In this document: piece after piece, positions 20,901 through 39,753 of the stretch
How positions within the stretch are numbered: position 1 is the stretch's first letter
Layout of the letters: every line of letters begins with the position of its first letter
IMG/VR virus record: IMGVR_UViG_3300017971_000278
Coordinates: 1-64,000 of that record
Direction: 5' to 3' (one strand)
Source of the DNA: a virus
Length of the DNA: 64,000 nucleotides
The notes under the pieces: generated by a model
Told to the model about the DNA's origin: nothing
The model's database searches: none
Seen by the model: the letters and a program-made list of their open reading frames with translations, nothing else
Translations under genes and position numbers: made by a program

Positions 20901-21341
20901 TTACATCATGCCAGAGCCTGGAGGGGCATACGCAACGCCCTTCGCAACAAGCTCATTTGCCGTAGCAACAGCTTCGTATCTACCACTTTTTAATTGTTGC
21001 AATCTTCTAGTTATCAAAGCAACACCATTACTTACACTAGTGCCGTGATAAAACACTATAACTTCCCATGACTCTGTTTCTCCACCTGTCATGTTGGCAG
21101 GAGAACCATAAAACATAGCAAGCTGATCTTCTGTACCTATAACAGGAATAGGACCAGTTTCACCAACAATATTACCATTGTTATCTAGTAGACTCATAGT
21201 GAAGACATATAAATCTTGGTATGATTTTTTAATAATAGCTCTTGCTGTTTTAAAACGATCTACATCTAAATGATCAGTCTTGCTGATTACTTGATTAATC
21301 TTTTTGCCAAATTGTGTATGTCCACCAATCTTACCAGGCAT
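20901..21341 (-). CDS. Baseplate-associated protein (possible spike OB-fold)
   Basis: 146 aa; TAATG-coupled to the hub gene; call based on position only. Confidence 0.5.
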   Translation of the reverse strand: MPGKIGGHTQFGKKINQVISKTDHLDVDRFKTARAIIKKSYQDLYVFTMSLLDNNGNIVGETGPIPVIGTEDQLAMFYGSPANMTGGETESWEVIVFYHGTSVSNGVALITRRLQQLKSGRYEAVATANELVAKGVAYAPPGSGMM

Positions 21342-24300
21342 TATGCTTCCTCCAGTCCACCAGTTGCGTCTGCGCCAAATAACTCATAAAAACCTTTTTG
21401 AGTATTAACAGAGGTTTCAAATATTTTCTCTGAAAGATCAAACCTATCCCATGCATCACTAAGATCATCCCAGTATTGATTCCATTTACCCTCGTATTGT
21501 AAGATCAATGAAGTATGATTAGGACCAAGAGAATTACTTAAGAATGGTTTACCACCAAGAGTTAATGGGGTTGCTAATACAGGAGCACCATCTTGTGTCC
21601 ACATTGCAAATTTAACGCCCGCACTCAAAGCAAGAAAACTAACAGTCTTAAGGGCATTGTATCCAGGGATTACAGCGCCAAGTGCAAAGTCTCCATAAGT
21701 ATACGACATTGCAGATGCTGCGACATCAAATACACTGGCAGTATAATAATCATTTGTTTCAACACAAAGGTCTGGTTTTATTACAGAAACATATCCTGTA
21801 TCACGATTAAATATATGGGTAACAGCTCCTACTTCGACAGGTCCAGTCATATTAATAGATGCGTCATTAATAAAACAAACATCATAAGGTTTAATATTTT
21901 CATCACCTATAACAATTAATTCACCTTTATAGGCGTCTCTTAATGTTGTTGCGAAAATACCTTGGGCATATTTTCTTGCCATATCAGTAGTAACACAAGA
22001 AGGGTATTCTGCAACATAAGATCTAATTGAAGACTCTGGTATATTCTCATCAAGCTTAACAGCAAAAACACCTGCTCCACCCCTGTGAACTTTCTCAACA
22101 TGCTCTACCACATCATCAGCATCATCATCAGTTATACTTCCTTCTTCTTCTGTGTAGTATATTTCTACTTCATTGTATGTACCATCAACAGATGTGCTAA
22201 TCTCATTCTTTAAGATATGGTGATAACTGTCAAAATAGTGATAATTTCTAAACGGTACATATCTACCAAACAACTCACCAAGTGCAAATCCAGTGTCGTA
22301 TCTAGAACCAGAGGTAAGAATATCGTTTACAAAAGCAGCTCCAAGAGTTGGAGAGCCACTAACAAATTTTTGTAAGTCATTAAGAAGACCTTTTTCTAAT
22401 AGTCCATCGCCAGTAAAAATATTCCAAACATTATTGCGTAGTTTTGTTATTTCATTTTTTGCGCCACGAGACAAAGCAACTTCCATTTCACTTGGTGGTC
22501 TACTCCAATAGTGTTGCATTTTACTACCAAAAAACATTGTCATTCTTGGTTCGTGACCATAAGGAACTGCCATAGATATATATCCAGGATGACGAAGTTC
22601 ATGTTCCTTAAATATTTCCCAAGGTGTTTGTTTTAATGGACGATACGCACAGGCGTTGTTCCAAAATGTATCCCAAGTTGAAGCATAGGTAGCAGGAGAT
22701 GGAGCATATATATTGTCATCTTGTGGATAGTTTAAGAATTGGTATCTATTAAACACACTTTCTAATCCTCTTGTAGACCATTCTGAAAGTATATTCCTTG
22801 GTGTTAATCCAGCAAGCAGACTATCTCCTCTTCCGCCTGTCCATGAGTGTCTTGCAGATGCAGGGTTTGCGCGATGATATCTATCTTGTCTACCAAAGTT
22901 TGCTATGGAATCTTGTATGATCGCGCCGGATAAAGCTTGCTGAGATGAATAGAAAACAGGACCATCCTCTAAAGGACCAAGCTGAACAGATTCTAATTCA
23001 GCACCATATCCTTGACAATGAATTTCAATAATCTTACCGTTCTCTGCGAGAGCAACTTCAACAACTTGTCCTAGAAACCTTGTTTTTAAATGGTTTGGAT
23101 TGGCTGCATACCCAAGACGAATTTGTACTTTAACACCATCTTGTAGGATCATTTTCTCAAAAGGGTGTTCTTGATCAGTGTCAGCAAAAATACCTTGTCG
23201 TTCTGCATCTTTGCCATACTTATTGACATCTTTGTCACTCTCACCAAATCTTCTTCGTAACAACAAACCACCTATATTGGTCATTCGTATTACAGCCATA
23301 GATGCAGCTATCTCTCTATCTTCGTGTATTTTGATTTCTTGTATAGCAGAGTAACTATAAAAATCATGAAAGGCTTTTAAGTGGCCACCACCAGCAAAGT
23401 CTGACTGTGCAGTGTCATCCTCTATAAAGAAGATTCTAAAAGTAGGGAAAGCCCTACGCATAGATAAGTCATTACGTTTTTTAGCTAGTGCAGTTTTAGA
23501 TGCTACTTGAGCTATACGTTTCTTTTCTTCTTTTTCTGCGTTTTCGGTAATAAAATGAGAATATTTTAACGCTCTCGTGTCTGAAAATATTGCCTCAGCA
23601 GTATTGCCTATTGCTTCTGCGTTATCAGTAATATCTGCGATAGCATTTAAGGCAGCAGTTGCTCCAGGAACAAGAAAAGCCATAGCACCCAAAGCACGTG
23701 CACCAAAGCCAAACAGATCAACTGCAGATACACCAGGAATAATATCTTTAATATCATACCTATCTTTTTCTCGTTCTTCAGCTGTAGAGCTAAAAGTAGC
23801 CCCACCATCTTTTGTAGTGGCTAAACGATTATTGCCTTTAGTAGAATCACCAGGTACAGAAGTACCTTCTAGATCATTTCTTGCTTCTATATTATTAGCA
23901 AGTCTGTCTTTTGCAGGGTCAAGTGCTTTGCCAGCATAAGCTGCATCAACAGGTTCCAGAAGTGGATTTGGACCAAATGCAAGAAGCTTATTCGCTTCAC
24001 CATACAGTGACTCTATAAGATTTGCATTGTACTTCTCGCCTACTCCTGAATCCCACTGTCTGTTTTCACGTATATATGGAGACAGTCTAGTGATAGCATC
24101 TAGGTATTTAAAGTTAGCACCTGATTTACTGTCTGCTCCATATTCTGTTGATACTTTCTTTTCCCATGAAGAGTAGCCATTGTTTACTGTATCAATGTCA
24201 TCCCTACGTGTATATATTGGTTCCCAAGCTTTTCCACCATTTTGAAAATAATTCCAATAATAACTAAGGTTTCTTTCGCCTTCTGATCTTTTGTGTTCTG

Positions 24301-27300
24301 ATGCTCTCTGTTCTAATATCTTTGGTAAGTTCTTTGACAAATAAGAACCACCAAGAAAAGATCCTTCTATGTATCTTTCTACAGATGCATAGGTATTGTT
24401 TACGTGATTCTCAAGACGCAACTCCATATTTTGACTATCTGTCATATTGGCAATTAATGGATCTTCACTAGAGTCATCATACACATAGTATTCTGGTGGC
24501 AAAGCAACTAGCGTACCAGGAAGATTTGGCATATGCATATCTTCATAGCATGAATTGATATTAGAAGCTACGAAGCCTATTGTGTCTTCTAGTACACCAG
24601 GAAAGAATCTACGCATATTCTCTTCGTCATTCATATATGTTTTAAACCTACGATAGATAGCATTCATTTCAGATGTCCATCTACGGAACACTTTACCGTG
24701 TGTTACATTTGTTTTTTGACCACCGTTATATCTAAAATCACCCCTGGTTTCTTTTAGTTTTTCTTCTGATATATTAATGGTATCTATTGGGTTTTCATGA
24801 TGATATGGATTAGAAGCATCATAATAATCACGAGCAATATTACGTTCGTCACTATGAATGTTTTCTACTCTACCATTCATAACGTGATCAGCGCCCCACT
24901 TCTTATATACGTCTTGCCACGTGAGTTCGCCTTTTGTACTTCTCTTCCATGCTATTGGTGGCATTTCTTCGTCAAGTCTTTTACAAATATCAACTGTATC
25001 AACAAGTAGTTTACCTAACCATTCTGGAGTGCCATTGACAGTCGTATAAGTTTTACCTGCAGAATCCGGATTGTATTGTACTAGGTTAGAATCCACACTA
25101 ATATTTGAAGTTATTTTATTAGAACCAATTTTAATATGTCTCATAAGCGCTCTAATGATTTTTTGCTTCTCACTTATAGTGGTGGCAAATTTATCTTCAA
25201 ACTGCTCACTAGCAAAATCTTGTGCAATAAACTCTATAATCAATTGATGTTTGTCTACACTCTCAGGAGCACTAACGTCTGCTGCATCAACAATGATTAC
25301 ATTTTTTATACCAGAAAGAGCTAGTATTGTATTTTGTCCACCGCGCCGGAAGAACGTATTAACTAATTCTATTGCACCAGATCCTTTTATAATAGAAGTG
25401 AATTGATTAGAATTATTAACAGCTTTTGAGAATAACTCTTTAAGAATATTAGCAGAGCGTTTTCCTTCTTTGCCAGCAAAGGTTAATACTATTTGACCAG
25501 TTTTATTACCCGCTCCGAGGAATTGGTAAGTATAATATGGCTGGCTTGTGAGTTTCATAGGAGCAATCCTATGTCCAAATGTTGTAGATATACTAGAACA
25601 AACTATATTTTTTAGTGCATTGCCAAAATTCTGAACTTCAGGATCACTGGAAATATTTAATTGTATATCCCTGTAAAATACATTTCTTACCTTTTGGTCG
25701 TCATAATAATAATGCCAACCATCGGCAGCCTGTTTATCTATCCATTTTTCTCTTGCTAATGGATCGTGTTTACTTGTGTTGTTTAACTTTGCTTGTAACG
25801 CTTTATACTCGGCTTCAGTTTTTGCTTCTTTGAGTATACGTTGTTTCTCTACCTGCTCAAAAACACTACCTTTATAGCTGGCAGTTTCTTCTTGTTGGGT
25901 GCGACGATCAGACTTTATATCATTTTCGTTGTGAATAGTATCAACGTCATCATCTATTTCTGTACTAGTACTTTGTTCAATGCCATATTTTTTTGTAAAG
26001 TAATTATGTAAGTAAGATTGATCACCTTTTATATATTGTGATTTCTTATTTGGGTAAGAAAGATCTATCCATATAGCATCAGTTGGGCGAGTATCAATAT
26101 GAACGAATTTAGAATTTGGATAAAAACCCTTTCCTGATCTTTTTAAGTTGTCTTTTGCCCAGGCAAAAAGATCTTCATTCGGCACGCCTTTGATAGTAAG
26201 ATCCATAGCATCCCCAATTACATGTTTGCGCACTTTGTTTGGCTTAGGGTCTTTTGTATAAAATTTATTTGTTGCAGGGTTAATTTTTCTCATCCAACCA
26301 GGGTCTCGTATACCAGAAACAAATGTAATAGTACGACCAGGATAATGATTAGCTATTTTTGCAAACAGCTTAATAAGTTCTTTTGATAAAAAGATAGACT
26401 TATTAGCTGTAAGCTTTCTTTTGTCTGCAAGCTTTGAAAGCTGATAAATTGTATCTGTCGGTATTTCTCCTTTTTCGTTTAACAAAGGAACAGAAATTGT
26501 TTTGCCAGATGCTTTATTTTTGAATCTTATTTTTCTCGTAGGGTCTACAGTGCCAGTATTTTTAGTCAAAGCTTCAATTTGTTTATCTTGCTCAGTCTGG
26601 CTATCGTGTGTTCTAAGTGTATCATCTAATGTTTTTTGGCCAATTAACTTTCTCCAATTCTTAGGAGAATAAAGTTCATCAACATCTTTGTATTTGTAGT
26701 CAATAAGATCTTGTAATGTAGCAGGGCTTTCCGCAAATTGACTATCCGGCGGCATAATTATTTTATATTCTCTGAATTTAAAACCAAGAGAATCTTTGGC
26801 GTCGTCAGTAATAGGTGCAGACATTGACTCTAAATGATTAGCAAAATACATCCAAGCGTCTGACTGTATTGGTAAATTTACAGGAACATGGTGGTTTTCT
26901 GCTGCATAAGTATTTAATATTTTATCTCTAATTTCATTATTTGCCTGATTTGATATTTTAGATAACACAAAATCAGATGACTCATACCCAGACAACTCAT
27001 CTAAATCAATCTGCTCAACTATTGCAGTAGATACTTGTGATTCATCAGATGGTTGAGTGTAACCAGGTAATTTTGCATTGTAATAAAAATGCTTACTAAA
27101 TGGTTTGTAATTAAAATAATGTAATTGTAAATCAAGCACAACCAATCCAACTGTTTCCATTGTGCTACGCAAACTACCTGCTTCTAAAATAAAGATAGTA
27201 GTTTCAAATTCATCAACACCTAATTTTTGTTTTATTGCATTGTTATGTACAAATACCAATGGATGTTTTGTTATCTCTGCCATCAAACGTCTAAGTTTAA

Positions 27301-27733
27301 CAACTTGTGATTCGCCCGGAGGAAAAGGAATGCTTAAATTCAAAGTAACATCTTGTCGGCCTTCTGAATCAATAATAGGAGCAGATGAACGTAGGGTTTC
27401 TCCAATAAATACATCAGTTTGTGTGGAAAGTGATATTCCAGTTATAGGTACATTGTACAAATGTATATCGTTTAATATTAAAAAACTATCAGGGAATGCA
27501 TAAAAGTGTGACGACGCTTTAAATATTTCTTCTGGCTTTTTGGATTTTTCAATTATCTCTTGTTGAAGGTCTGGTCTATTAGTTCCATCTGGAAAGTTTT
27601 CGCTAGACACACCATCAGACCATGGGTCAAATAAATCTTTATTGCGCTCGTAGTCTTCAAACTCGTTATTATTATTACGTTTTATAGGATCTTGTCCTTG
27701 TGTCCAATCTCCTTGCTTCCCATAATTTTTCAT
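21341..27733 (-). CDS. Baseplate hub / tail-associated lysin with peptidase M15 (YcbK/MepK-like) domain
   Basis: 2130 aa. M15 zinc motifs VSGIR...HVIGDAMD...FVHIDTR at about 26040-26540. C-terminal hub-like region (LQDGVKVQIRLGY...FLGQVVEV...IHCQGYGAEL; YKGELIVIGDENIKPYD). Confidence 0.8.
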   Translation of the reverse strand: MKNYGKQGDWTQGQDPIKRNNNNEFEDYERNKDLFDPWSDGVSSENFPDGTNRPDLQQEIIEKSKKPEEIFKASSHFYAFPDSFLILNDIHLYNVPITGISLSTQTDVFIGETLRSSAPIIDSEGRQDVTLNLSIPFPPGESQVVKLRRLMAEITKHPLVFVHNNAIKQKLGVDEFETTIFILEAGSLRSTMETVGLVVLDLQLHYFNYKPFSKHFYYNAKLPGYTQPSDESQVSTAIVEQIDLDELSGYESSDFVLSKISNQANNEIRDKILNTYAAENHHVPVNLPIQSDAWMYFANHLESMSAPITDDAKDSLGFKFREYKIIMPPDSQFAESPATLQDLIDYKYKDVDELYSPKNWRKLIGQKTLDDTLRTHDSQTEQDKQIEALTKNTGTVDPTRKIRFKNKASGKTISVPLLNEKGEIPTDTIYQLSKLADKRKLTANKSIFLSKELIKLFAKIANHYPGRTITFVSGIRDPGWMRKINPATNKFYTKDPKPNKVRKHVIGDAMDLTIKGVPNEDLFAWAKDNLKRSGKGFYPNSKFVHIDTRPTDAIWIDLSYPNKKSQYIKGDQSYLHNYFTKKYGIEQSTSTEIDDDVDTIHNENDIKSDRRTQQEETASYKGSVFEQVEKQRILKEAKTEAEYKALQAKLNNTSKHDPLAREKWIDKQAADGWHYYYDDQKVRNVFYRDIQLNISSDPEVQNFGNALKNIVCSSISTTFGHRIAPMKLTSQPYYTYQFLGAGNKTGQIVLTFAGKEGKRSANILKELFSKAVNNSNQFTSIIKGSGAIELVNTFFRRGGQNTILALSGIKNVIIVDAADVSAPESVDKHQLIIEFIAQDFASEQFEDKFATTISEKQKIIRALMRHIKIGSNKITSNISVDSNLVQYNPDSAGKTYTTVNGTPEWLGKLLVDTVDICKRLDEEMPPIAWKRSTKGELTWQDVYKKWGADHVMNGRVENIHSDERNIARDYYDASNPYHHENPIDTINISEEKLKETRGDFRYNGGQKTNVTHGKVFRRWTSEMNAIYRRFKTYMNDEENMRRFFPGVLEDTIGFVASNINSCYEDMHMPNLPGTLVALPPEYYVYDDSSEDPLIANMTDSQNMELRLENHVNNTYASVERYIEGSFLGGSYLSKNLPKILEQRASEHKRSEGERNLSYYWNYFQNGGKAWEPIYTRRDDIDTVNNGYSSWEKKVSTEYGADSKSGANFKYLDAITRLSPYIRENRQWDSGVGEKYNANLIESLYGEANKLLAFGPNPLLEPVDAAYAGKALDPAKDRLANNIEARNDLEGTSVPGDSTKGNNRLATTKDGGATFSSTAEEREKDRYDIKDIIPGVSAVDLFGFGARALGAMAFLVPGATAALNAIADITDNAEAIGNTAEAIFSDTRALKYSHFITENAEKEEKKRIAQVASKTALAKKRNDLSMRRAFPTFRIFFIEDDTAQSDFAGGGHLKAFHDFYSYSAIQEIKIHEDREIAASMAVIRMTNIGGLLLRRRFGESDKDVNKYGKDAERQGIFADTDQEHPFEKMILQDGVKVQIRLGYAANPNHLKTRFLGQVVEVALAENGKIIEIHCQGYGAELESVQLGPLEDGPVFYSSQQALSGAIIQDSIANFGRQDRYHRANPASARHSWTGGRGDSLLAGLTPRNILSEWSTRGLESVFNRYQFLNYPQDDNIYAPSPATYASTWDTFWNNACAYRPLKQTPWEIFKEHELRHPGYISMAVPYGHEPRMTMFFGSKMQHYWSRPPSEMEVALSRGAKNEITKLRNNVWNIFTGDGLLEKGLLNDLQKFVSGSPTLGAAFVNDILTSGSRYDTGFALGELFGRYVPFRNYHYFDSYHHILKNEISTSVDGTYNEVEIYYTEEEGSITDDDADDVVEHVEKVHRGGAGVFAVKLDENIPESSIRSYVAEYPSCVTTDMARKYAQGIFATTLRDAYKGELIVIGDENIKPYDVCFINDASINMTGPVEVGAVTHIFNRDTGYVSVIKPDLCVETNDYYTASVFDVAASAMSYTYGDFALGAVIPGYNALKTVSFLALSAGVKFAMWTQDGAPVLATPLTLGGKPFLSNSLGPNHTSLILQYEGKWNQYWDDLSDAWDRFDLSEKIFETSVNTQKGFYELFGADATGGLEEA

Positions 27734-27736
27734 TAA

Positions 27737-30700
27737 TTAAAGCCTCTCGTGAATTTTTCTCGCCAAAGAATTAGCATCTAATATAGATCTGTCATCTTTA
27801 GTTCTTATGTTCACACTGCCTCCGTTAGAGAGTTGTCGTGCGCTCCTCATTAGATCATCAGAGGAAGAATTCAGGTCATCAGTACGCATTCTTATATTAG
27901 CATGCGAGGTTCTTCTTCCGCCACCCATATCATATATTTTAGGTGACATATTCATACCAGGACTTGGTGGATTCATAGGATGACCGCCAACATAATCTGG
28001 ATTCTCAAAATCTACATTTCTTCCACTATTTGCGCCTTCTGGATTTCTCATAACACCAGCAGTACTAGGGGCCATAAGCATAATGCCAGCGGCAACCCCA
28101 AGTCCAGCAAGTAAAGGTTTCTTTGCTCTGCCAGCTGCACTAAGTAAACTTCTGGCTTTTACTTGCCCTCTCATAACAGCTCTTGATGCACGCATAGTGA
28201 ATTTGTTAATGTTACCAGCATTAGCTTGCATCATAGTTTTTGTAACATCTACAGATCCAGTGCGGCGAGAATGAAACATTCTAACAGCCTCTTCTAACGC
28301 AATGCCTCCACCATGTCTACCTCTAGATGCAGCATTAGCTTTCATTGCAGTATCTATTTCTTTGCTTACCGAGTCATAAGAACTAATTGCAGTCTCTGCC
28401 CATTTGCGTGGTTCATATTTTAAACTATGTTGAGTAACTCTTCCGCTAGCGTCAGTCATGGTTCCAGTAATAGTTCTTGGTTTGTCACCCATAATGGTTT
28501 TAATAACACCCTCTAGTCTGGCAGTACCTTTCTCTCCACCCTCATCAACAGCTTGTGTAATAGATTTATAAAAGTCACCTTCTAAAACACCATGTTTGCC
28601 ACCAATAGCAGCTTCTTCAAGATGCCAGAATAACTCAGCCATAGGTCTATATTGTTCAGCTTTGCTATATTGAACACCAAGTTTAAGTTTCTGTAGTGCT
28701 ATATTTACTTCACCAGTTGTGGTTTTTGCGGTAGATAATTTTCTATAGCCTTCTACCATGGGGTCTAACCCAGCACCCTTGCTAACGTTACCCTCAACCA
28801 TATCTTTCATGGCATAGTGATTAAACAAATACTGTGTATACCCTTCTCTAATATCTTTGTTCATAGCACGACGAGCTTGGTCAGAGGTTCTTCTATCTGA
28901 GATTAGCGATAATGTAAATTGATCCTTATCAAAGTCACCCTTCATACCAACCATTTCAGACACGTCAACATCTAAAACTCTGCTATCTTGAAATGATATT
29001 TTTCCAAATTTAGTAGGCGCGGCCAACATACCATCGACCATATTTGCATCTTTCTTAAAATTAACAAACTGAAATGACTCAGGCCCAGATGTAGGATGTC
29101 TCCATATGCCACCAGTAATAGATTCGCCTTTTCTAAAAGCTTCTCTTTGTTGTTGTAAGAATTGTATTTGGTCATCTGCTTGTGCGCGGCTTATTAGGTC
29201 ACCAAACATATCTTCACCAGTTGCACTTGAGATTCTGAACACACCAGGATCTTTAGCAAAAGTTTTTCTTTGGCCAGTAAGATATTTTGATCCAATAATC
29301 TTGCCTCTGGCTGAAGCTTGTGACTCTGCTTGTTGTACTACAGATGTTCTAAGTCCAGCAGCAGCCTCTTCTAGTTGCTCTGTAGTTATTTTGCCCATTT
29401 CTGCATCACGCATAGCACGTCTAAAACCACCTAGTTCTTTTACTAGTGGAGTGTCTATAAGTTCTCCTTTTGCCATTTTTGCTTGCATAAGTTCTGGAGC
29501 TTCTAATGTTCCAGGTATATACATAACATCAGACCCACCAAGAGCACCTAGTTTTCTACCAAGTTTTACGTACCTGCCTTCTGATTGTGCAATATCTCCA
29601 GACATAAAAGATTCTAATGGTCTACCTTGTCTGGCTAATTTATCAAACAACGACTCTTGACCTAATACAGTTGCAGCCATTTTGTCAGCAGCAGCAAGTT
29701 CACCTTTGCCAGCAATTCTTGTAGTTAGTTCAGCAGCATAACGCTGTCCTATTTCACCCTTCATAGACAATGCTCTAAATCCACTAGGCTCAAATGTTCC
29801 CCATTTGCCGGACCCACCTTCTGTTGCAATGTCACCAAGCATACCTTTGGTCAGCCCAACAACACCAGGTGAACGAGCAATATGACCAGCTTCTCTCCAT
29901 GACAATGTTCCAGATTTTGCAAAGTCAGACAATGTATCTCTACTCATAAGACCAAATGTAAGTTGCATTTCGTCTCTATTGAACTGCCAATTCTTTGCTA
30001 ATCCAACAAGATTTCTTTGTATTTGTGTGTGTGCTGAACTACCAGCAGACCTAACTAGTTGTTTAACATTCATAGCAGCAGTGGGGTTTTCTAAAAATGC
30101 TATTACTTCTGGTGTTGGTTGCATTGAACCAGATTGTATTTTTTGTGCAACAAACATAGAGGTAGCTTCAATTTGTTGGGTAAGTAGTGCCATTTTGTTT
30201 CTACCAACAAGCTTACCAGAGAACACAGCTTCTATTGGTTGGCCAGCTATATTAACTCTATCTCCCATTCCAGCGGCTTTAAGTACACCTCTCATTTTTG
30301 TTTCGTCGGCAGCAGAAGCCATATATTTACTTTCTTCGGAAAAATACTTCCACATCTCTGTAGAAGAAAGTTTTCTTCTTTCCCTAAGGTAAACATTTGC
30401 TTCGTTCTTGCCAGTTAATTCTGCACCAATAGCAGTAACACCAGCGTTACTATCTAATCCAGTTAAAATATCCTTACCCGTCCCTCGTTCTATACCGACA
30501 AATCCTTCTTTAGCACCTATATTTAAAGGTACTGTTTCGCCTATCTTTTTACCTTCAAGACTACTAGCAAGATTTTGGTTAACCATAAAACCTTTATCTA
30601 AAGCTACCTTCTTTTGCATGATACGTTCATATTCCATCATACCAGTAACACTCTTAGAAATAACTCCTTCTTCGGCAGCAAGCATTTGATTAAGTGCTCT

Positions 30701-32140
30701 GGACTGATAACCAATACCATATCCACTACGTGAAGGTTTTGCATAGAAAGTTGTTAATTGTGGTGCTGAATATGCCTGTCCAGACAATGGCGACTTGTCA
30801 CCATACATAAATTGCTTATACATTGGACCTTGTATTTTTCTATCTAACCTGTTGTAGTATTGTCCAAATAATCCTTTAAACCCTGTTGCTCTAGATTTTG
30901 CTTCTCCTGTAATTCCCCATTCTGGACGAACAAATTGTGTTGGTCTATCACTTGGAGATGCAAATGCACCAAGTGGACCAAAAAGATCTTCAGCTAAGTT
31001 TCTTGTTGATAATGTGCCTTTGCTCGCTGCGCCAGGAGATGTAAAAGGATATAGACCTTTCCCAAAAAGATTAATGATATCGTCCTCTTCCATTGCTCCA
31101 TACATAACAGCTTCTTGTGTTGTAAGTCTAGCTCTGGCCATTCCGCCAGAAGTCATATAAGGACTTGCCCATATTGCAGCAGCTCTATTGCCAGAGTCTC
31201 GCATATTCATATGATCAATAAGCCTTTGATTGGCATCTAAAACATTTTGTTTTAAATGTGCTTTTGTTTTCGACTGCTGTATGGCATCTATTAAACTTTC
31301 TTCGTACATTTCTGGGAAAGACATTTTTCTGCCAGTAACATCATACCCTTGTCTTGTCACATATCTTGTATTAAGGTTCTTACTACTGTATGTAACTCCA
31401 GTTTGTGCCAATGGCATAGCAGCTAATCTATCTTCACCAACTTGTCCAATCATCATAGGGGTACTTACAGGCTTCCCAGCAACAACATCATCTATATTTT
31501 GATACGACCATTCTATTGCTCCCTCAAGACCAAACGCATCGGCAGCTCTCTTTTGAATTCTAAGAGCATGTTCTCTAGCCTTTGCTGGTAATAAATTTAT
31601 ATCAGAAAAACCTTTACGAGCTGCGCCTCCAAAGCCACCTGGGGATATAGCACTCATAACACTTTGTTCAGTAGATAATTTTTGTATATTTGCTTGAAAA
31701 GAACTTATGTCTCCAGAGTATTTTTGAACAGCAGCAAGTCCAGCTTTATATGCGCCAAGAGCAGAAGTTTGTCTATTAATAGATGACATTGCACCCAGCG
31801 CTTGTTTATGTGTTAAAGCACCACCAGACATTAAAGATTGATATGTAGAAGCGTGGATGTTTGCTATTGATTCAACAGCACCAGCTCTTCTTTCAAAAGC
31901 AGATACACTAGCCTGTACCGCTTCGTCAAAAATATCAGCACCTGGCATACTATTTTTAAGAGAATTAAAACCAGTAAGACTTTGTGACTGTGCAACTGTT
32001 TGGCCGATAATATCTGTATTTGCAGTGTTCCATGCTTCTTGAAAAAGTTTTTTGTTTTTTAAAAAAGCATATCCTGCGCCGCCAGTAAAGGCAGTTCCAG
32101 CAGCTAGATTCCAAGGCATATTTTTATCATCATCAAACAT
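27737..32140 (-). CDS. Putative virion RNA polymerase, single-chain two-DPBB type, in the tape-measure locus
   Basis: 1467 aa. beta'-like motifs RHPT (R1014) and GDFDKDQ (D1069-D1073; nt 28922-28936). beta-like motifs AEEGVIS, K598-YFSEES-K605 and GQPIEAVFSG occur in collinear order upstream. Confidence 0.65.
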   Translation of the reverse strand: MFDDDKNMPWNLAAGTAFTGGAGYAFLKNKKLFQEAWNTANTDIIGQTVAQSQSLTGFNSLKNSMPGADIFDEAVQASVSAFERRAGAVESIANIHASTYQSLMSGGALTHKQALGAMSSINRQTSALGAYKAGLAAVQKYSGDISSFQANIQKLSTEQSVMSAISPGGFGGAARKGFSDINLLPAKAREHALRIQKRAADAFGLEGAIEWSYQNIDDVVAGKPVSTPMMIGQVGEDRLAAMPLAQTGVTYSSKNLNTRYVTRQGYDVTGRKMSFPEMYEESLIDAIQQSKTKAHLKQNVLDANQRLIDHMNMRDSGNRAAAIWASPYMTSGGMARARLTTQEAVMYGAMEEDDIINLFGKGLYPFTSPGAASKGTLSTRNLAEDLFGPLGAFASPSDRPTQFVRPEWGITGEAKSRATGFKGLFGQYYNRLDRKIQGPMYKQFMYGDKSPLSGQAYSAPQLTTFYAKPSRSGYGIGYQSRALNQMLAAEEGVISKSVTGMMEYERIMQKKVALDKGFMVNQNLASSLEGKKIGETVPLNIGAKEGFVGIERGTGKDILTGLDSNAGVTAIGAELTGKNEANVYLRERRKLSSTEMWKYFSEESKYMASAADETKMRGVLKAAGMGDRVNIAGQPIEAVFSGKLVGRNKMALLTQQIEATSMFVAQKIQSGSMQPTPEVIAFLENPTAAMNVKQLVRSAGSSAHTQIQRNLVGLAKNWQFNRDEMQLTFGLMSRDTLSDFAKSGTLSWREAGHIARSPGVVGLTKGMLGDIATEGGSGKWGTFEPSGFRALSMKGEIGQRYAAELTTRIAGKGELAAADKMAATVLGQESLFDKLARQGRPLESFMSGDIAQSEGRYVKLGRKLGALGGSDVMYIPGTLEAPELMQAKMAKGELIDTPLVKELGGFRRAMRDAEMGKITTEQLEEAAAGLRTSVVQQAESQASARGKIIGSKYLTGQRKTFAKDPGVFRISSATGEDMFGDLISRAQADDQIQFLQQQREAFRKGESITGGIWRHPTSGPESFQFVNFKKDANMVDGMLAAPTKFGKISFQDSRVLDVDVSEMVGMKGDFDKDQFTLSLISDRRTSDQARRAMNKDIREGYTQYLFNHYAMKDMVEGNVSKGAGLDPMVEGYRKLSTAKTTTGEVNIALQKLKLGVQYSKAEQYRPMAELFWHLEEAAIGGKHGVLEGDFYKSITQAVDEGGEKGTARLEGVIKTIMGDKPRTITGTMTDASGRVTQHSLKYEPRKWAETAISSYDSVSKEIDTAMKANAASRGRHGGGIALEEAVRMFHSRRTGSVDVTKTMMQANAGNINKFTMRASRAVMRGQVKARSLLSAAGRAKKPLLAGLGVAAGIMLMAPSTAGVMRNPEGANSGRNVDFENPDYVGGHPMNPPSPGMNMSPKIYDMGGGRRTSHANIRMRTDDLNSSSDDLMRSARQLSNGGSVNIRTKDDRSILDANSLARKIHERL

Positions 32141-32143
32141 TTG

Positions 32144-35100
32144 TTATGCTCCCACTCCCTTAATAGCTTTATCAATTAATTCTTTTCGACCGTCGTAAAT
32201 CTGCACATTATATTTATCTTTACCTAAACTCCCACCTAGTTGAGATTGAGTAATTTCTGCTTTGTATTGGCTAAACATTTTACTAAGCGCTTTAGAGTTC
32301 TGAGCAACATTACTATATGTATTGTACTCAACATCATTTTCCATTTGTGATATTAACTGATTATTTATATATGGTTTATTAGCAAGGGATCTTTTACGTT
32401 TTTCCCACAAGTCAAAATCATGAAAATCTAATCCAGCGTTCTCTACATATTTCAGTTTAACATCTTCTAGGTCAACAGATGGGTGCCATCCTAACCAATC
32501 GGCTCCGGGTAAAGAATGTGTGTCAAAATATTCAGCTGCTTTCTGTTCTCTGAGCCACTCATCAAAATCTTGATTACCACGAGTTTCTTGCTCCCATTGT
32601 TTTCTCATATCTGGTGAATAATCGTATCCTTCACCTGCACGCATTTTTGCAGTAGTCGCAATAATATCATTATCTTGTTCTGTTGCAATTTTAGCATCTC
32701 GTTTTGCGTAGGCAGCTTGTTCTTTCTGTCTCATCCATTGAGAATGATACAGTCTCTTCTCGTTATCTGGAATTAATTCTAAGATTTGTTTTCTGTCTTT
32801 CTCGGTCTTAGCATTAAGGAATTCATTAAAGAAATCCTTTTCTCTCCTTGGTAAAGCCCTCATAACTTTTGCAGGACTTTGAAATACATCCACACCGAAC
32901 ACAGTAGATTCTTTACGCTTTTTAAATTCCTTTGCAGTATCCCTATCTCCAACTTCTCTAGCTTTTGCTTCTATTCTAGATGACTTAACCCATTTGAGCA
33001 TATCGAAATATTCTTGTATATCTCTACGTTCTTGTACTTGTTCTGGGATATCAGTAAAACCAAGTTTATATTTTGCCATATCTATGGCTGGAATAATAAA
33101 ATTCTCTAATGGTTTATCCCAGAAAGAAGCACCTGTGCCAACTGCTTCTGTTGCAATATATTCTTCAATAGGAGATCTATGTCTAATTAATTTTGATGCA
33201 GGAGATACTGGTGTTAAATATTCTAACGGAGTCTCTATGCTATGTGTAATTTTTTCCCATATGCCGCCAGCCAAACGTTCTCTAAAAGAAAAATCAAGTT
33301 GTTGGAACTCGTCTTGTGCTTTTTCTGCTCGTGCAACACCAGCTTCTGCAGCCATAGAGCTATACGTTTTACCATCTAAAACAGCTGCTGCTTTCATTAC
33401 AGGACCAGCTTTGCTTTTAGAATATCTTCTAGATTCTAATGATGGAGTTTGTATTGTAATATTTTGCCCAAGTAGATTTCTTTTAGCAAATTCCATGGCA
33501 GCAGCTTCGTCTTTTGTTTCACCCATACCAGGAATTTCAATGATCATATCACCAAATTCTTTTGTACGAAACTGAGTCGGAGAAATGATATCAGATACAG
33601 TGACATTATATTGCTGCAACTGCTCTTCTTGAAACTTATAATCTACAAATGTTCTACGTTGTTTTTTCTCTCTTACTTGTCTTTCTGTTTCAAGTACTAG
33701 TTGTTTTTCAGCAGAACTCATGTTTTTAAGATTACGTTTTGCTTCAGACATTGCAGATCTATATTCATTACTATACATTGCTATGTCACCAAGTATTTTT
33801 ACTCTGTGTGCCAAAGGATACTCTTCTGGAGACAACCCAGCAACATCCCTATGTAGTGCTGCATAACCAGCACCAGGAAGACGTATTTCTGCTTCTGGTA
33901 TTTTATCAAATGGATTACCATGCTTAAGATCAATAAAATAATCATCTGGCATCCACGATGGCATAGTATTTCTCAATGGATTATACGTATCAAGATAACT
34001 TCTTGTGCGCGGAATAAATCTTCTTATTGCTTCTGTTGTTCCTGCGCCGCCACCAATGTTTAAATGCTTCCAAAGCCAATACTCAGCACCAGTTTCTTTC
34101 CCCATAACACCTAATGTTTTTTGATTAGGTAAAAACTCTTCTCTTCCAATTACTTTTTTAGTTATTGCACCTTCCATAAATCCAACAAGACCGACAGCTT
34201 CTCTACGCCTGTAGTTTAGTTCATTTATTAAAGTTGCAGGACTATCCGGATCTACTGGGTCACCAGGACCTATTCCACCAAGAGCCTTAGATATTTTTTC
34301 TTCTCCACGTGTGTCTAGGCGATGTACGTATCCGCCACCGGGACGTTTCCATTCTTCTGGTCTAATTTCTTTACGAGGCTTAAAAAGTTTACCAAATGTT
34401 GAAGCAATAAGAGGACCTATAAACGGTATTTCATCACCATAAGTACCAGTCATTGGTGCTGGTCGTTCATATTTGTATTTCTCTTCGTAATGATATTTCC
34501 ATTCGTCAGAACCAAACATTGCTTTAAGTGGATGTAGCATAGGATCATAATCCCACTTCTCTTGCTCGTCTCCATATAAACCTTTTTGATATGCTCTAGT
34601 TCTTAAACGTGCTGCAAAGTGCGGTCTAAAATATTCAATGCGTCCACCTTCGTATCCAGTCGATCGGCCAAATTCCCACCATCGCCCTTTACGTACAGCA
34701 ACTTCTTTCTCTCCAGAATATATAGCCTCTAACTCTTCTGGAGAGTCAGTTGTGCCTAATATTCCAGCAAGCAGCGCACTAGGTCTACCAGATAATGTAC
34801 TAAGGCCAAGTGCAGTTATTCCATATGCTGCTATACCTGCTGTAAACCCAAGAGCCATTGGATTTTTTATTTTAGCAAGATGCTTAAGGCCAGGTGTTTT
34901 TAACATCTTCTGCCCAATTCTAGAAGACCACATTTTATCTAGAACTTTACCAGGACCTTTTTCTCTCATATGCTCAAATACCTGAGCAAGAGGTTTCCCG
35001 GTTTTTATGCTTTCTGCAATAGATACACCAGCGAATGAAGAGTAACTTGCTAATCCACTGGCAAGCGCACCCACTCCACCAAAACCTAATGCAGTTTTCA

Positions 35101-36316
35101 TTGATATTAAGCCAGGTGTTATTTGTTCTTGTTCGCGCAAGGTTTCAGTAAACCCAAGCCCCCTAGATAATTTAGCCCTAGCAACACTTATATCAGTACC
35201 AACAGATACAACACCAGACAATATACCTTCATCAAATCTAGGCGCTACTCCAGCAACTAATCCTGCGGCAGCACCAATCGCAAGACCAGTAGTAGAGAAT
35301 TTCATACCAGCTTGTCGGCCAAGTATTGCACCTAACCCAGCGCCTCCTGCTGTAGATAAAGCAGCGGCCCAAGGTGAACCTTCAGATCTTAAATAATCTG
35401 TATATTCTATACCCTTCCATACTGCTCCAGCCAACATAGCCTTACCTGTATACCTGCCAAGAAATTGTAATGCAGTACCAGGTTTAACAGCCAAACTTCT
35501 CATTCCAGGTATTTTCTCTACATACTTACCAATACCAGGAATCTCTAGTGGTGATCTTAATAAGATATTCAGACGACTTGCAGTAGATGCAGCTTTTGCT
35601 CTAAGCAACTTACCTGTTGTTTCTGCACGGGCTACATTTTTAGCCATGCCTTCAGACAGGGCAATGTCTTTACCAAGCACACGAACCTTCTCGCGCAAAC
35701 GAGAACCAATAATCAATCTCTGTCGTCTAAGGTGTGGCTCTATTCTGTCAATCCATTCACTGTAAGGAAGTGGAGATTTGGATTGTTTCCATCTATTGCG
35801 AAGGATAGCATCATTTAAAGACTCGTATTGTGATAATTGCACTCCTTGTATACGAGCATAGAAGTCTGCAATAGCTGCGCCCTTTTGGGTTCCAGCTTCA
35901 ATATTAAGACCCATTCCAAGAAGCTTGCCGTTGGTATCACGCACTTCTCCAAAAATAGAGCCGGTTCTTGTTAATGAATACCCTTTGGCTTGGCCGAAAG
36001 AAGCCTTAAGGTGTTTACCGTAAACACCTGATCTTATATCAGCAGGATATGCACTAACTGTACTCCAACTTTCAAGTGGTGATAAAAATTCAGATGTACG
36101 AAATGTACGTAGAACTCCCCCAGGAGACCCTGCTTCTACTGCGCGGATAGTAGATAAATACTTATCCCATACTCTTCCGGTGCTTGTTGAAATAAATCCA
36201 GACGCAGCAACACCTGCAGAAGATGCTGCTAGAATAGCTAAGTTCTGTTGACGCTCACTAATACTCTCTTCGGGTACTTTTGGGCGCGTATCAAATCCAA
36301 TAAGTGGATTAACCAA
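32144..36316 (-). CDS. Tape-measure-like / ejected protein with Gly-Ala membrane segments and a degenerate SNase-fold domain
   Basis: 1390 aa, directly after the tail chaperones. Hydrophobic GxxxG segments at about aa 290-520; RKGRWWEFG...EGGRIEYFRP motif; SNase-like segment at about 33325-33610. Confidence 0.6.
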   Translation of the reverse strand: MVNPLIGFDTRPKVPEESISERQQNLAILAASSAGVAASGFISTSTGRVWDKYLSTIRAVEAGSPGGVLRTFRTSEFLSPLESWSTVSAYPADIRSGVYGKHLKASFGQAKGYSLTRTGSIFGEVRDTNGKLLGMGLNIEAGTQKGAAIADFYARIQGVQLSQYESLNDAILRNRWKQSKSPLPYSEWIDRIEPHLRRQRLIIGSRLREKVRVLGKDIALSEGMAKNVARAETTGKLLRAKAASTASRLNILLRSPLEIPGIGKYVEKIPGMRSLAVKPGTALQFLGRYTGKAMLAGAVWKGIEYTDYLRSEGSPWAAALSTAGGAGLGAILGRQAGMKFSTTGLAIGAAAGLVAGVAPRFDEGILSGVVSVGTDISVARAKLSRGLGFTETLREQEQITPGLISMKTALGFGGVGALASGLASYSSFAGVSIAESIKTGKPLAQVFEHMREKGPGKVLDKMWSSRIGQKMLKTPGLKHLAKIKNPMALGFTAGIAAYGITALGLSTLSGRPSALLAGILGTTDSPEELEAIYSGEKEVAVRKGRWWEFGRSTGYEGGRIEYFRPHFAARLRTRAYQKGLYGDEQEKWDYDPMLHPLKAMFGSDEWKYHYEEKYKYERPAPMTGTYGDEIPFIGPLIASTFGKLFKPRKEIRPEEWKRPGGGYVHRLDTRGEEKISKALGGIGPGDPVDPDSPATLINELNYRRREAVGLVGFMEGAITKKVIGREEFLPNQKTLGVMGKETGAEYWLWKHLNIGGGAGTTEAIRRFIPRTRSYLDTYNPLRNTMPSWMPDDYFIDLKHGNPFDKIPEAEIRLPGAGYAALHRDVAGLSPEEYPLAHRVKILGDIAMYSNEYRSAMSEAKRNLKNMSSAEKQLVLETERQVREKKQRRTFVDYKFQEEQLQQYNVTVSDIISPTQFRTKEFGDMIIEIPGMGETKDEAAAMEFAKRNLLGQNITIQTPSLESRRYSKSKAGPVMKAAAVLDGKTYSSMAAEAGVARAEKAQDEFQQLDFSFRERLAGGIWEKITHSIETPLEYLTPVSPASKLIRHRSPIEEYIATEAVGTGASFWDKPLENFIIPAIDMAKYKLGFTDIPEQVQERRDIQEYFDMLKWVKSSRIEAKAREVGDRDTAKEFKKRKESTVFGVDVFQSPAKVMRALPRREKDFFNEFLNAKTEKDRKQILELIPDNEKRLYHSQWMRQKEQAAYAKRDAKIATEQDNDIIATTAKMRAGEGYDYSPDMRKQWEQETRGNQDFDEWLREQKAAEYFDTHSLPGADWLGWHPSVDLEDVKLKYVENAGLDFHDFDLWEKRKRSLANKPYINNQLISQMENDVEYNTYSNVAQNSKALSKMFSQYKAEITQSQLGGSLGKDKYNVQIYDGRKELIDKAIKGVGA

Positions 36317-37851: not shown

Positions 37852-38769
37852 TTATACTAGGTTTCTTCCAATAAAACTATACGTTTCAAAAATTGGCTGA
37901 CCTGAAACCTCTATTGTTTGAGTTTGGCCAGTAAAGGATAGTTCTAAAATTTTCTTTACGGTATGATTTGCTGGTTGGCGGGACATATCACCGTAAACTA
38001 TCCAAACATCCATTGGTGGATATTGGTCTGCACGTCTATGACTAAAAACTTGTTCATCTGATATTGCATCTTGCCAAGGTAGATTTTTAGAAAATAGTTT
38101 ATCGCGCACTGTTGGGTTGGCTTTATCAGAACCATACCATATTGCATCTTCAAAAGCTTCTGCCCAGTCCTCAAATGCATTATCTGGTAACGCACCTAAT
38201 TCTTTCCAGAATCTATTGAAACTTTTATTTTGTCTGTTGTTATCAGCGCTTTGTTGCCAATCAAACATCTGCTCTACATTTGCCTCCAGTACCCTTTTAT
38301 TACTAGCTGCTTTTGCAGCTGCTGTCAAGGTATTTCCTGCTTTTGTAGTGTCATAGTAATTGACTTTATTGCCATTAGAATCTAAAGAGTATCTTGGAGA
38401 GGTCCATATTTCATTATGTGCCTTATTCCAATCTTCTTCTGTTTGTATACGGCTGCTACTAATGTTAGCTACTTTCTCTTGAAACCTTTGCATTGGCCAT
38501 AACAAATAACCTGCTTCTTTAAAAGCTATTGTGAGTGTGCCTTGAACTATGACATGTCCGTCAGCAACAAAACTATAATATTGACTTGAGTAACCATATA
38601 CTGGAGTTTTAGTTTGACCAACACTAAAATTTATAGCTGCGGCGCTATCAATTAAAACATCGCCCATCATGATACCGATCTGAGAACCAGAGTACCAGTC
38701 GTACTCATAGGCGTTATTACCTATATTATTAGGTGTAATAAAATTACCGTTTTGATCTCTTAGTGGCAT
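37852..38769 (-). CDS. Tail tube-like protein, paralogue 3 (tube initiator)
   Basis: YSGSQI, KTPVYGY...G..IVQGTL and ADQYPPMD motifs shared with the major tube gene. Confidence 0.7.
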   Translation of the reverse strand: MPLRDQNGNFITPNNIGNNAYEYDWYSGSQIGIMMGDVLIDSAAAINFSVGQTKTPVYGYSSQYYSFVADGHVIVQGTLTIAFKEAGYLLWPMQRFQEKVANISSSRIQTEEDWNKAHNEIWTSPRYSLDSNGNKVNYYDTTKAGNTLTAAAKAASNKRVLEANVEQMFDWQQSADNNRQNKSFNRFWKELGALPDNAFEDWAEAFEDAIWYGSDKANPTVRDKLFSKNLPWQDAISDEQVFSHRRADQYPPMDVWIVYGDMSRQPANHTVKKILELSFTGQTQTIEVSGQPIFETYSFIGRNLV

Positions 38770-39692
38770 TATATAAACTGATTCCTTCTATATATGTGAT
38801 TGTTAAGAAAGTTTTTATGTCTTGATAACTTATCTGCAGTCATTGTCCACTCTTCTTTTATACCTTGACCGTCAATTGCACGCTTGTCAACAATTCGCAT
38901 AGGATCTAAATCCCTTGCTACATACTGTACTACATTTTCAGAAAAAATGTCTTCAATTGAAAAAGTGGAACCTTCTGATACAAACTCAACGCCCCATATT
39001 CCCATATGTGATAAAGCGCCATATTCATTTGCAAAAACCAAACTTATATCAAGAGGTGGCAACTGATCAGGTAAATTAGTTGTGTAAGTATATTTATCAT
39101 GATCACTAGTGCCTGTATTATAAAATTTAAGATTAAGAGCTAATATTTCATGTAGTACATGTTGGTGGAAAACGGTAAAAATCATACTACCAGCAATTGT
39201 TCTTGGACCGCGAGTATAGGCTCTAGGATAAACAGACCCCAGTGTTCTAACTGGAGCTTTATCTCTATGTATTTGCCAGGAAATAGTTTGTAGTTCTGCG
39301 AGCACTTTAGATGTAGGTATTTTAGAAAGCTGTTCTAACTCTTCCTCCATGTTTGTTAAAGACGTGCTGTATTGTTCTAAGTTTTCTTGTAGTATTGCAA
39401 CAGTATTAGTTTTGTTTGCATATTCTTGGCTGGCCATAATACGATCAAGTTCTGCAGCAGATTCATTAAAAAGCCTTTGGTCTTCCGCTATATTACTTTT
39501 TATCATATCTAAAAAAGCTTTATCTGGATGCGGATAATGAACCACTACTTTTATATCCGCACCGGAGAAACTACCAAACCCAAGGTAGTCAGATACATTA
39601 GCATAAGACGCAACCTCATCAGGATCGCCTGCAATTTTTAATGCTTGAGTGGGTGGTATGATAGTACCAGCTTTGGTTCCAATATTCGCCAT
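38769..39692 (-). CDS. Tail tube-like protein, paralogue 2, with coiled-coil insertion
   Basis: SFSGADI, RDKAPVRTLG...RGPRTIAGSMIF and DQLPPLDISLVFANEYG motifs. Confidence 0.75.
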   Translation of the reverse strand: MANIGTKAGTIIPPTQALKIAGDPDEVASYANVSDYLGFGSFSGADIKVVVHYPHPDKAFLDMIKSNIAEDQRLFNESAAELDRIMASQEYANKTNTVAILQENLEQYSTSLTNMEEELEQLSKIPTSKVLAELQTISWQIHRDKAPVRTLGSVYPRAYTRGPRTIAGSMIFTVFHQHVLHEILALNLKFYNTGTSDHDKYTYTTNLPDQLPPLDISLVFANEYGALSHMGIWGVEFVSEGSTFSIEDIFSENVVQYVARDLDPMRIVDKRAIDGQGIKEEWTMTADKLSRHKNFLNNHIYRRNQFI

Positions 39693-39706
39693 ATCTATTC
39701 CTAACT

Positions 39707-39738
39707 GATAAAGAAAGGGCTAGATCTCTCTAGCCCTT
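39707..39738 (-). terminator. Rho-independent terminator after the major tail tube gene
   Basis: Minus strand AAGGGCTAGA-GAGA-TCTAGCCCTT (10-bp stem, GNRA loop) followed by TCTTTATC. Confidence 0.75.
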
Positions 39739-39753
39739 ATATTAGGTGTGTGA

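Follow-up and report, generated by a model that had tools for sequence, protein, structure and literature searches.

Two-barrel RNA polymerases carried in the virion have been shown only for a few phage groups (PhiKZ-like, crAss-like and P23-45-like phages), and a polymerase in the tape-measure position only for one group of long-tailed Thermus phages. In Thermus phage P23-45, gp96 is a single-chain two-barrel enzyme with a DxDxD motif, fused to the tail tape measure, and it provides a model for injection and for transcription of the earliest genes (PMC10770324; PDB 8h2m/8h2n). The virion-packaged gp66 of phage phi14:2, which has a DFDxD motif and is flanked by giant virion proteins, is also a single-chain two-barrel enzyme (10.1101/2020.03.07.982082), and YonO-like single-chain enzymes have been described too (PMC7824862). 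A candidate of this kind is considered here: an unannotated 1467-amino-acid (aa) gene at positions 27737..32140, on the minus strand, of a 64,000-nucleotide stretch of viral DNA (positions 1 to 64,000 of the IMG/VR record IMGVR_UViG_3300017971_000278; hereafter the window). The source record is a 72-kb fragment judged 38% complete, and the window is one long block of structural genes on the minus strand. A preliminary description of this DNA, made from the sequence alone, had proposed that the gene encodes a virion RNA polymerase and had cited the three precedents above, all of which are in print.

The 1467-aa protein is very probably a single-chain polymerase of nucleotides with two double-psi beta-barrels (DPBBs), a statement about fold and enzyme class, and is most likely a DNA-dependent RNA polymerase. 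The fuller statement, that this polymerase would be packaged by way of its ends, injected, and used to transcribe the first phage genes, is put forward with somewhat more confidence than doubt. Like gp96, the window protein unites predicted polymerase and tape-measure-type parts (a membrane segment and a C-terminal end) in one polypeptide at the tape-measure locus. P23-45 has a long non-contractile tail, and its polymerase makes up the first ~1200 residues of a ruler protein that is 5002 residues long and includes a metallopeptidase, whereas the window protein has only 1467 residues and no long ruler region, belongs to a contractile-tailed phage and has its peptidase in the separate hub gene (PMC10770324). 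The gp66 protein differs from it in length (2180 residues) and in coming from a podovirus-like phage (10.1101/2020.03.07.982082). In contrast to the non-virion RNA polymerases (nvRNAPs) of PhiKZ (7ogp/8que) and AR9 (7s00/7s01) and to the cellular and poxviral enzymes, the window protein fuses both halves in a chain far smaller than beta plus beta-prime, encoded in a tail operon. QDE-1, RDR2 and YonO have the same one-chain architecture, with no detectable sequence relationship, but are cellular RNA-interference or prophage enzymes without a virion role.

The open reading frame (ORF) is genuine, with an ATG start and no internal stop, and it occupies the slot in which large contractile-tailed phages normally have their tail tape measure. 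Its parts are listed below; "model" numbering refers to an AlphaFold2 model of residues 230-1330, and all other positions are window coordinates or residues of the protein.

27737..32140, minus strand: whole gene, putative single-chain two-barrel RNA polymerase homologue (P0001), with a 3-nt gap to either neighbour
32060..32113, minus strand: N-terminal segment, Gly/Ala-rich and moderately hydrophobic, residues 10-27
29813..31003, minus strand: predicted beta-like module, residues 380-776 (model 151-547)
30656-30676, minus strand: motif AEEGVIS, residues 489-495
30326..30349, minus strand: predicted two-lysine hairpin K598...K605 (motif KYFSEESK, residues 598-605; model strands 367-372 and 376-382), identified by conservation and aligned with KFFSVGSK of protein ME3_36 of Acinetobacter phage ME3
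30215-30244, minus strand: motif GQPIEAVFSG, residues 633-642
28220..29662, minus strand: predicted beta-prime-like module, residues 827-1307 (model 598-1078)
29288-29311, minus strand: motif ARGKIIGS, residues 944-951
28859..29296, minus strand: predicted double-psi beta-barrel of the beta-prime-like module, residues 949-1094
29204-29236, minus strand: motif RISSATGEDMF, residues 969-979
29090..29104, minus strand: WRHPT, residues 1013-1017, putative counterpart of the NRxP motif, with R1014 invariant and P1016 nearly so
28922..28936, minus strand: DFDKD, putative metal-binding catalytic triad D1069/D1071/D1073, within the motif GDFDKDQ (residues 1068-1074, 28919-28939)
28055..28114, minus strand: hydrophobic, transmembrane-like segment, residues 1343-1362
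27740..27943, minus strand: C-terminal conserved domain, residues ~1400-1467, part of a module common with the slot proteins of cultured relatives

The preliminary description had recognized seven polymerase-like motifs in the chain, and each is found once, in the order and at the positions that it gave. The hydrophobic, Gly/Ala-rich termini that it had remarked on are also present, at residues 10-27 and 1343-1362. Across the family introduced below, a 19-residue window with a Kyte-Doolittle mean of >=1.0 occurs in the N-terminal ~80 residues of 91/139 relatives; the C-terminal hydrophobic maximum lies at a median of 128 residues from the C-terminus and reaches a 19-residue mean of >=1.5 in 67/139.

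A single DxDxD motif proves little, because a chain as long and as rich in Asp as this one would be expected to contain 0.18 of them by chance; the real test is conservation. A word-indexed search returned 25 full-length relatives (38-66% identity, 1447-1504 aa), and an exhaustive profile search found 178 representative clusters (50% identity) at E <=0.001, 160 of them at <=1e-10, nearly all with proteins of 1430-1700 aa. Conservation was assessed on the 139 of 171 proteins with >=1200 residues, the 32 shorter, fragmentary ones having been dropped. D1069, D1071, D1073, R1014 and P876 are each present in 139/139 members, K598 in 138/139, K605 in 133/139 (with Arg in 2 others), P1016 and K1182 each in 137/139, and Q655 and E1175 each in 136/139. 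The aspartates of the DxDxD and the two lysines singled out in the preliminary description are thus kept among homologues. When only the 56 most divergent sequences are compared (15-43% identical to the query), no columns are invariant but P876, R1014 and those of the three Asp. The triad varies at its middle positions (DFDRD in 23, DYDAD in 11, DFDKD and DFDAD in 10 each, and others). Two of the proposed beta-like motifs fared less well: AEEGVIS, likened to EDSILVS, is present but its acidic pair is not conserved (E490 in 64/139, with Gly in 69/139; E491 in 85/139), and GQPIEAVFSG is present but weakly kept (Q634 in 50/139).

The AlphaFold2 model, built without templates from a 31-row family alignment, has a mean predicted local distance difference test score (pLDDT) of 82.5 and a predicted template modelling score (pTM) of 0.74. 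All 44 matches listed by Foldseek against the PDB are RNA polymerase large subunits, 15 of them at E <=0.001. A Foldseek-independent, motif-blind search of 48,161 representative chains placed two-barrel polymerases in all of its best 18 rows, matching the beta-like half, the beta-prime-like half, or both. The N part of the model (151-547) matched the PhiKZ nvRNAP (7ogp_C, score 12.4, 280 residues, root-mean-square deviation 4.9), AR9 (7s00_C, 11.5) and vaccinia Rpo132 (6rfl_B, 10.7, 403 residues); the C part (598-1078) matched human Pol I A (7ob9_A, 9.3), Pol II Rpb1 (9.2), archaeal A' (8.9) and Mycobacterium tuberculosis beta-prime (8.0); and both halves together matched RDR2 (7w84_A, 10.7, 450 residues aligned) and QDE-1 (7y7p_A, 10.2, 451 residues aligned). 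In the same search, stand-alone DPBB domains matched model 720-865, the stretch with R1014 and the DxDxD, in which D1069/D1071/D1073 fall at model 840-844; the K598/K605 hairpin (model 367-382) lies within the beta-like match at 151-547. The model thus contains beta-like and beta-prime-like DPBB modules in a single arrangement of the active-site-forming kind that marks the two-barrel superfamily, and the proposed single chain, with the beta-like half followed by the beta-prime-like half, is borne out by the model and the fold searches. A DPBB is modelled around the invariant DxDxD, and the protein does not model as the simple helical tape measure that would have spoken against the proposal. 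That the resemblance is a matter of chance and the fold an artefact of modelling has a negligible probability: a motif expected 0.18 times carries little weight, and sequence searches for known families are blank, but the model was made without templates, the 18 best rows came from a search blind to motifs, and the catalytic residues are invariant.

At the sequence level, there is a link between the family profile and E. coli beta-prime in hhalign (E 4.9e-4), in which residues 884-982 align to beta-prime 249-380 and RGKIIGS and FRISSATGEDMF are paired with the beta-prime segments to which the preliminary description had likened them.

The position of the gene bears on what the protein may do. 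The tail module of the window is, as judged from sequence homology, orthologous gene by gene to those of Bacillus phage 0305phi8-36 and Acinetobacter phage ME3, a relationship that is new here. Since sheath, tube, chaperonin, the 1390-aa protein on one side of the gene (giant A) and the hub on the other are homologous to proteins of these phages, the gene lies in the slot of 0305phi8-36 gp146 and, by sequence, is the positional counterpart of the tape-measure candidate of the lineage. The preliminary description was right to speak of a tape-measure locus, the gene standing between homologues of gp145 and of the hub, but its placing between the chaperones and the hub is inexact, given that the 1390-aa gp145 homologue intervenes between the chaperonin genes and the polymerase gene. 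In 0305phi8-36, the gene between gp145 and the gp27-like hub encodes gp146, a protein of 2537 aa (L017:14624-22237) annotated as a [quoted passage not shown]. It was assigned as the tape measure by tail length, and only its last 60 residues are conserved in relatives (Hardies et al., PMC2147016).

It is at this end that gp146 and the window protein are alike. A hidden Markov model (HMM) of residues 1335-1467, built from 139 sequences, was run against ~280 proteins (the giants of cultured phages, all ORFs of a complete relative, and flanking giants). It scored 29.0 bits at the very C-terminus of gp146 (2410-2519), 27.4 bits in gp034 of Bacillus phage KLEB27-3 (2340-2428) and 11.6 bits in ME3_36 (1477-1581), with decoys at <=6 bits; hhalign of the module against gp146 gave E 4.7e-4. 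Similarity to gp146 was not found outside the C-terminal ~130 residues. Two other slot-mates bear hallmarks of the polymerase. In ME3_36, a "hypothetical protein" of 1603 aa, DHDQD occurs once, at 1217, and KFFSVGSK lies at 632; the protein aligns to the family profile in hhalign over 193 columns, those of the lysine hairpin among them (E 2.6e-4). The best viral fold matches (BFVD, E 3.3e-8) include pieces of an ME3 protein that is probably ME3_36, and the link to ME3_36 is drawn only from hhalign, motifs and this fold match. KLEB27-3 gp034, a "structural protein" of 2434 aa, has DYDGD at 1933 in a segment that aligns to RxP...DxDxD (E 0.0016). The protein CDS0027 of Moorella phage MTATph1 (L019:8904-12833) lacks the DxDxD and shows none of these hallmarks. 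On sequence grounds, then, the proteins of this slot join unlike bodies to C-terminal ends that are related, the body being a predicted polymerase in many members.

A structural tape-measure or tail-lumen protein with an inactive, relic polymerase fold could be expected in this slot and with this type of C-terminus, and two slot-mates, gp146 and CDS0027, are without the DxDxD. Relics lose their catalytic residues, however, and in this family no positions are better kept than the three Asp, R1014 and K598, in 139 sequences with identities as low as ~15%, so a relic is very improbable.

Within this one tail-module lineage, the slot gene has polymerase hallmarks in the window, ME3 and KLEB27-3, and none in 0305phi8-36 and MTATph1. 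0305phi8-36 has a polymerase like YonO and RNA-dependent RNA polymerases elsewhere, this relative being a different gene, orf99 (PMC2147016). This distribution suggests that the slot polymerase and the orf99-type polymerase may substitute for each other.

The proposed mechanism begins with catalysis, for which, as for template, packaging, injection and timing, we infer the function from the features above. The beta-prime-like barrel (949-1094) would carry R1014 and the D1069-x-D1071-x-D1073 loop; the Asp triad would hold the catalytic Mg2+, and K598 and K605 would be contributed by the beta-like barrel, with nucleotide addition by a two-metal mechanism. No promoter or terminator signal was found around the gene, and only 3 nt separate it from either neighbour, so that its transcription would be shared with the late tail genes. 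The ends, which are of the tape-measure type, may then serve to build the protein into the particle, inside the tail tube or below it and beside the hub, and the protein would be expelled with the DNA at infection, transcribing the first phage genes independently of the host enzyme, as proposed for P23-45 gp96 (PMC10770324). Virion delivery and early transcription are somewhat more probable than an alternative course.

Two such courses deserve weight. In one, an active two-barrel polymerase is made late and has an intracellular role, be it that of a late or middle transcriptase or that of an RNA-dependent or primer-synthesising enzyme like QDE-1 and RDR2, and is not delivered with the virion. 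This is unlikely in view of the fixed place in the tail operon in 11/11 loci, the hydrophobic ends, the C-terminal module common with the virion protein gp146, and the fact that an enzyme whose synthesis is confined to the time of the late structural genes must be borne by the particle if it is to begin the cycle. In the other, the virion polymerase is stored in the head as ejected cargo, as for phi14:2 gp66, N4 and PhiKZ, and its position among tail genes is merely historical. With the exception of gp96, the published virion polymerases are carried as cargo of the head (PMC13282480; 10.1101/2020.03.07.982082), and crAss-like giant proteins are among the weak BFVD fold matches (E 5.6e-3); both the slot and the C-terminal module, on the other hand, are those of the tape-measure candidate, the end of which alone is conserved across the lineage (PMC2147016), and storage in the head appears slightly less probable still than a purely intracellular role. 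A second weak BFVD match to a crAss-like giant protein is at E 1.6e-2, and phi14:2 gp66 is absent both from the fold matches listed by Foldseek and from the best 50 rows of the 48,161-chain search.

Several results weigh against a polymerase packaged through tape-measure-type ends. The loop with the catalytic Asp is poorly modelled (pLDDT <50 at model 840-842), and conservation of the beta-like acidic pair (E490/E491) was looked for in the 139 members and not found. Residues 230-1330 model as a globular mixed alpha/beta protein with no long ruler helix, and the long, mostly helical ruler with a length scaling with the tail that characterizes a tape measure is not seen; protein length hardly varies (1447-1504 aa in 26 relatives). 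Of the slot-mates, only gp146 has been proven to be in virions, and it has neither a DxDxD nor the lysine hairpin in its 2537 aa; its detection there speaks for the C-terminal module alone and not for the polymerase. The hhalign match to E. coli beta-prime has a probability of merely 32%, and nothing sensible was obtained against E. coli beta. Against P23-45 gp96 and gp64, the best local matches set the DxDxD on DFDGD (12 columns, E 0.14) and on DYDGD (E 0.2), respectively, and neither is significant. Neither Pfam nor PHROGs returned a match for the protein, searches of PDB sequences with the single sequence or the profile gave a coiled-coil adhesin at E 1 as their sole row, and the family profile, run as an HMM over six-frame translations of the ME3, Ma-LMM01 and P23-45 records, gave nothing at E <=1. 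Finally, a repeated promoter-like motif was sought upstream of genes in the complete relative described below, and only tRNA-like words were found.

Other searches were also blank. The protein lies outside the Pfam definition of cellular-type beta/beta-prime, and Pfam gave nothing significant for 26 close members; RNA_pol_Rpb2_6 (PF00562) and RNA_pol_Rpb1_2 (PF00623) have no match in the whole record, with 14/14 control genomes positive. The best score in the ESM Atlas, 0.77 to a "tape measure", is below the useful range. No match was obtained by tblastn with four members (P0001, P0065, P0083 and P0054) against 50,697 GenBank phage records, a scan of one genome per species for 185,579 prokaryote species gave 173 pattern matches and no relative, and a cluster look-up of three NCBI-sourced relatives gave no names. 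The blanks in Pfam, PHROGs, tblastn and cluster look-up agree with the earlier suggestion of a distinct lineage overlooked by annotation. The literature searched, with supplementary data (including the 23 family alignments of PMC10770324) outside its scope, contains no description of the family, nor of ME3_36 or KLEB27-3 gp034 as polymerases; the family goes without mention in the available text of PMC13282480 and PMC7824862 (a 2026 jumbo-phage review and a 2021 comparative study) and of PMC5795418.

A complete relative (G001, 197.7 kb; 197,730 bp) has exactly one copy of the polymerase gene and no match to Pfam RNA_pol_Rpb1_2, Rpb2_6 or Sigma70_r2, which fits a phage that needs its own enzyme and is no proof of it. 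A search for a T7-like polymerase (PF00940) is uninformative, with no match there and none in any control either. The structural genes of this genome form a block (~62-130 kb) on a single strand, and the opposite strand carries most of the remaining genes; the commonest intergenic words are tRNA-arm sequences, and several tRNA genes are probable.

The 178-cluster family would extend the idea of a tail-borne polymerase to large contractile-tailed phages of many metagenomes, and the idea can be tested at the bench because the cultured phages ME3 and KLEB27-3 carry the hallmarks in the same slot. Tail-operon genes labelled "tape measure", "structural protein" or "hypothetical" can hide phage transcription machinery, a point relevant for predicting host independence, resistance to inhibition of the rifampicin type and the control of early genes. 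Students of how minimal RNA polymerases evolved may find the compact core of interest, with its beta/beta-prime-like halves in a single chain of 1100 residues. A broader scheme, offered tentatively and with more doubt than belief, is that the tape-measure slot of the 0305phi8-36/ME3-related lineage holds an exchangeable cargo-plus-anchor protein, in which a conserved C-terminal tail-docking module is joined either to a ruler (gp146) or to a complete beta/beta-prime-like RNA polymerase. The tail lumen might then be a delivery device for the first transcriptase, the polymerase possibly serving also as a motor for drawing in the genome of 170-200 kb, and the arrangement could be a second, independent invention of the tail-borne polymerase of P23-45, from a cellular-type and not a gp96-type enzyme.

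The neighbouring genes named above, all on the minus strand, are as follows.

40441-42330, minus strand: tail sheath
39754-40425, minus strand: tail tube, 223 aa, equivalent to gp140 (E 3e-36)
38769-39692, minus strand: tube paralogue, 307 aa, equivalent to gp141
37852-38769, minus strand: gp142 homologue, 305 aa
36322..37835, minus strand: two chaperone-slot genes, 276 aa and 226 aa, the former homologous to tail chaperonin gp143 and ME3_33
32144..36316, minus strand: giant A, 1390 aa, homologue of 0305phi8-36 virion protein gp145 and of ME3_35
21341..27733, minus strand: hub, 2130 aa, homologue of 0305phi8-36 gp147 and of ME3_37

Two chaperone-slot genes thus lie upstream of the 1390-aa ORF, followed by the three genes of the tube family, the sheath gene and, at a greater distance, the gene for the major capsid protein. 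On the other side, beyond the 2130-aa ORF in the downstream direction, there are three small genes (one gp25-like) and then a Baseplate_J gene. The phage has a contractile tail, as had been proposed, since sheath, tube and baseplate J genes are present. PHROGs labels the family of the tube genes (37852-40425, minus strand) as "major head protein", apparently a mislabel. In 11/11 related IMG/VR loci, the order is the same as far as the contigs reach: tube paralogues, two chaperone-slot genes, giant A, the polymerase gene (1461-1509 aa), a gene of 2034-2158 aa, three small genes and baseplate J. Searches by tblastn with the sheath and with the 2130-aa protein returned the same eight records of six cultured phages, namely Bacillus phages 0305phi8-36, WH1, Edson and KLEB27-3, Moorella phage MTATph1 and Acinetobacter phage ME3. 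In three of these phages (0305phi8-36, KLEB27-3 and ME3), the counterpart matched by the 2130-aa protein carries the annotation baseplate hub. The hub has a Peptidase_M15 domain at 399-550, a match to an endolysin-family PHROG at 1824-1996, a hydrophobic segment at 1337-1366, and a very conserved region (1420-2000) homologous to the gp27-like hub gp147 of 0305phi8-36. A complex prediction with the C-terminal 93 residues of the polymerase and hub residues 1400-2070 scored 0.00, which is no evidence either way.

The only strong hairpin is at 39715-39738 (minus strand), in the intergenic space that directly follows the tail tube gene; it is terminator-like, with a 10-bp stem followed by a T-rich tail, and looks like an attenuator that would lower the expression of downstream genes, the three giants included.

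Giant A matches gp145 (hhalign E 2e-75), MTATph1 CDS0026 (2e-74) and ME3_35 (5e-73); its N-terminal third is hydrophobic, and its C-terminal part is globular and includes an SNase-like domain. Its relatives range from 1379 to 2610 aa, and it was considered as the true tape measure; this proved wrong, the variation being caused by inteins and the C-terminal 891 residues modelling as globular. The inteins (Hint plus a LAGLIDADG homing endonuclease) begin with Cys, end in His-Asn, and occupy three separate sites of high conservation, which follow residues 551, 759 and 1277 of the window's giant A, all three being occupied in one relative. Intein-bearing homologues are found at L001:4651-9990, L003:4644-9953, L004:4662-9998, L009:2052-9884, L010:5319-9983 and L011:2956-9726; giant A of the window has no intein, and the exteins are of constant length (~1380-1393 aa). 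Giant A has 211 database relatives, many of which bear the label "intein/homing endonuclease". In KLEB27-3 (L020:878-8031), the homologue is split into gp031 and gp033, with a small gene between them and the break near a conserved YNP-x-RN-x-MP motif. The C-termini of giant A (32147-32230) and of the polymerase (27740-27820), both on the minus strand, have a similar pattern at a similar distance from the end, hydrophobic-x-I/V-x-I/T-x-D-x-R-x-x-L followed by a short helix. At an hhalign E of 0.05 this is merely suggestive and is not relied on here; the pattern may be due to chance or may be a docking signal common to both.

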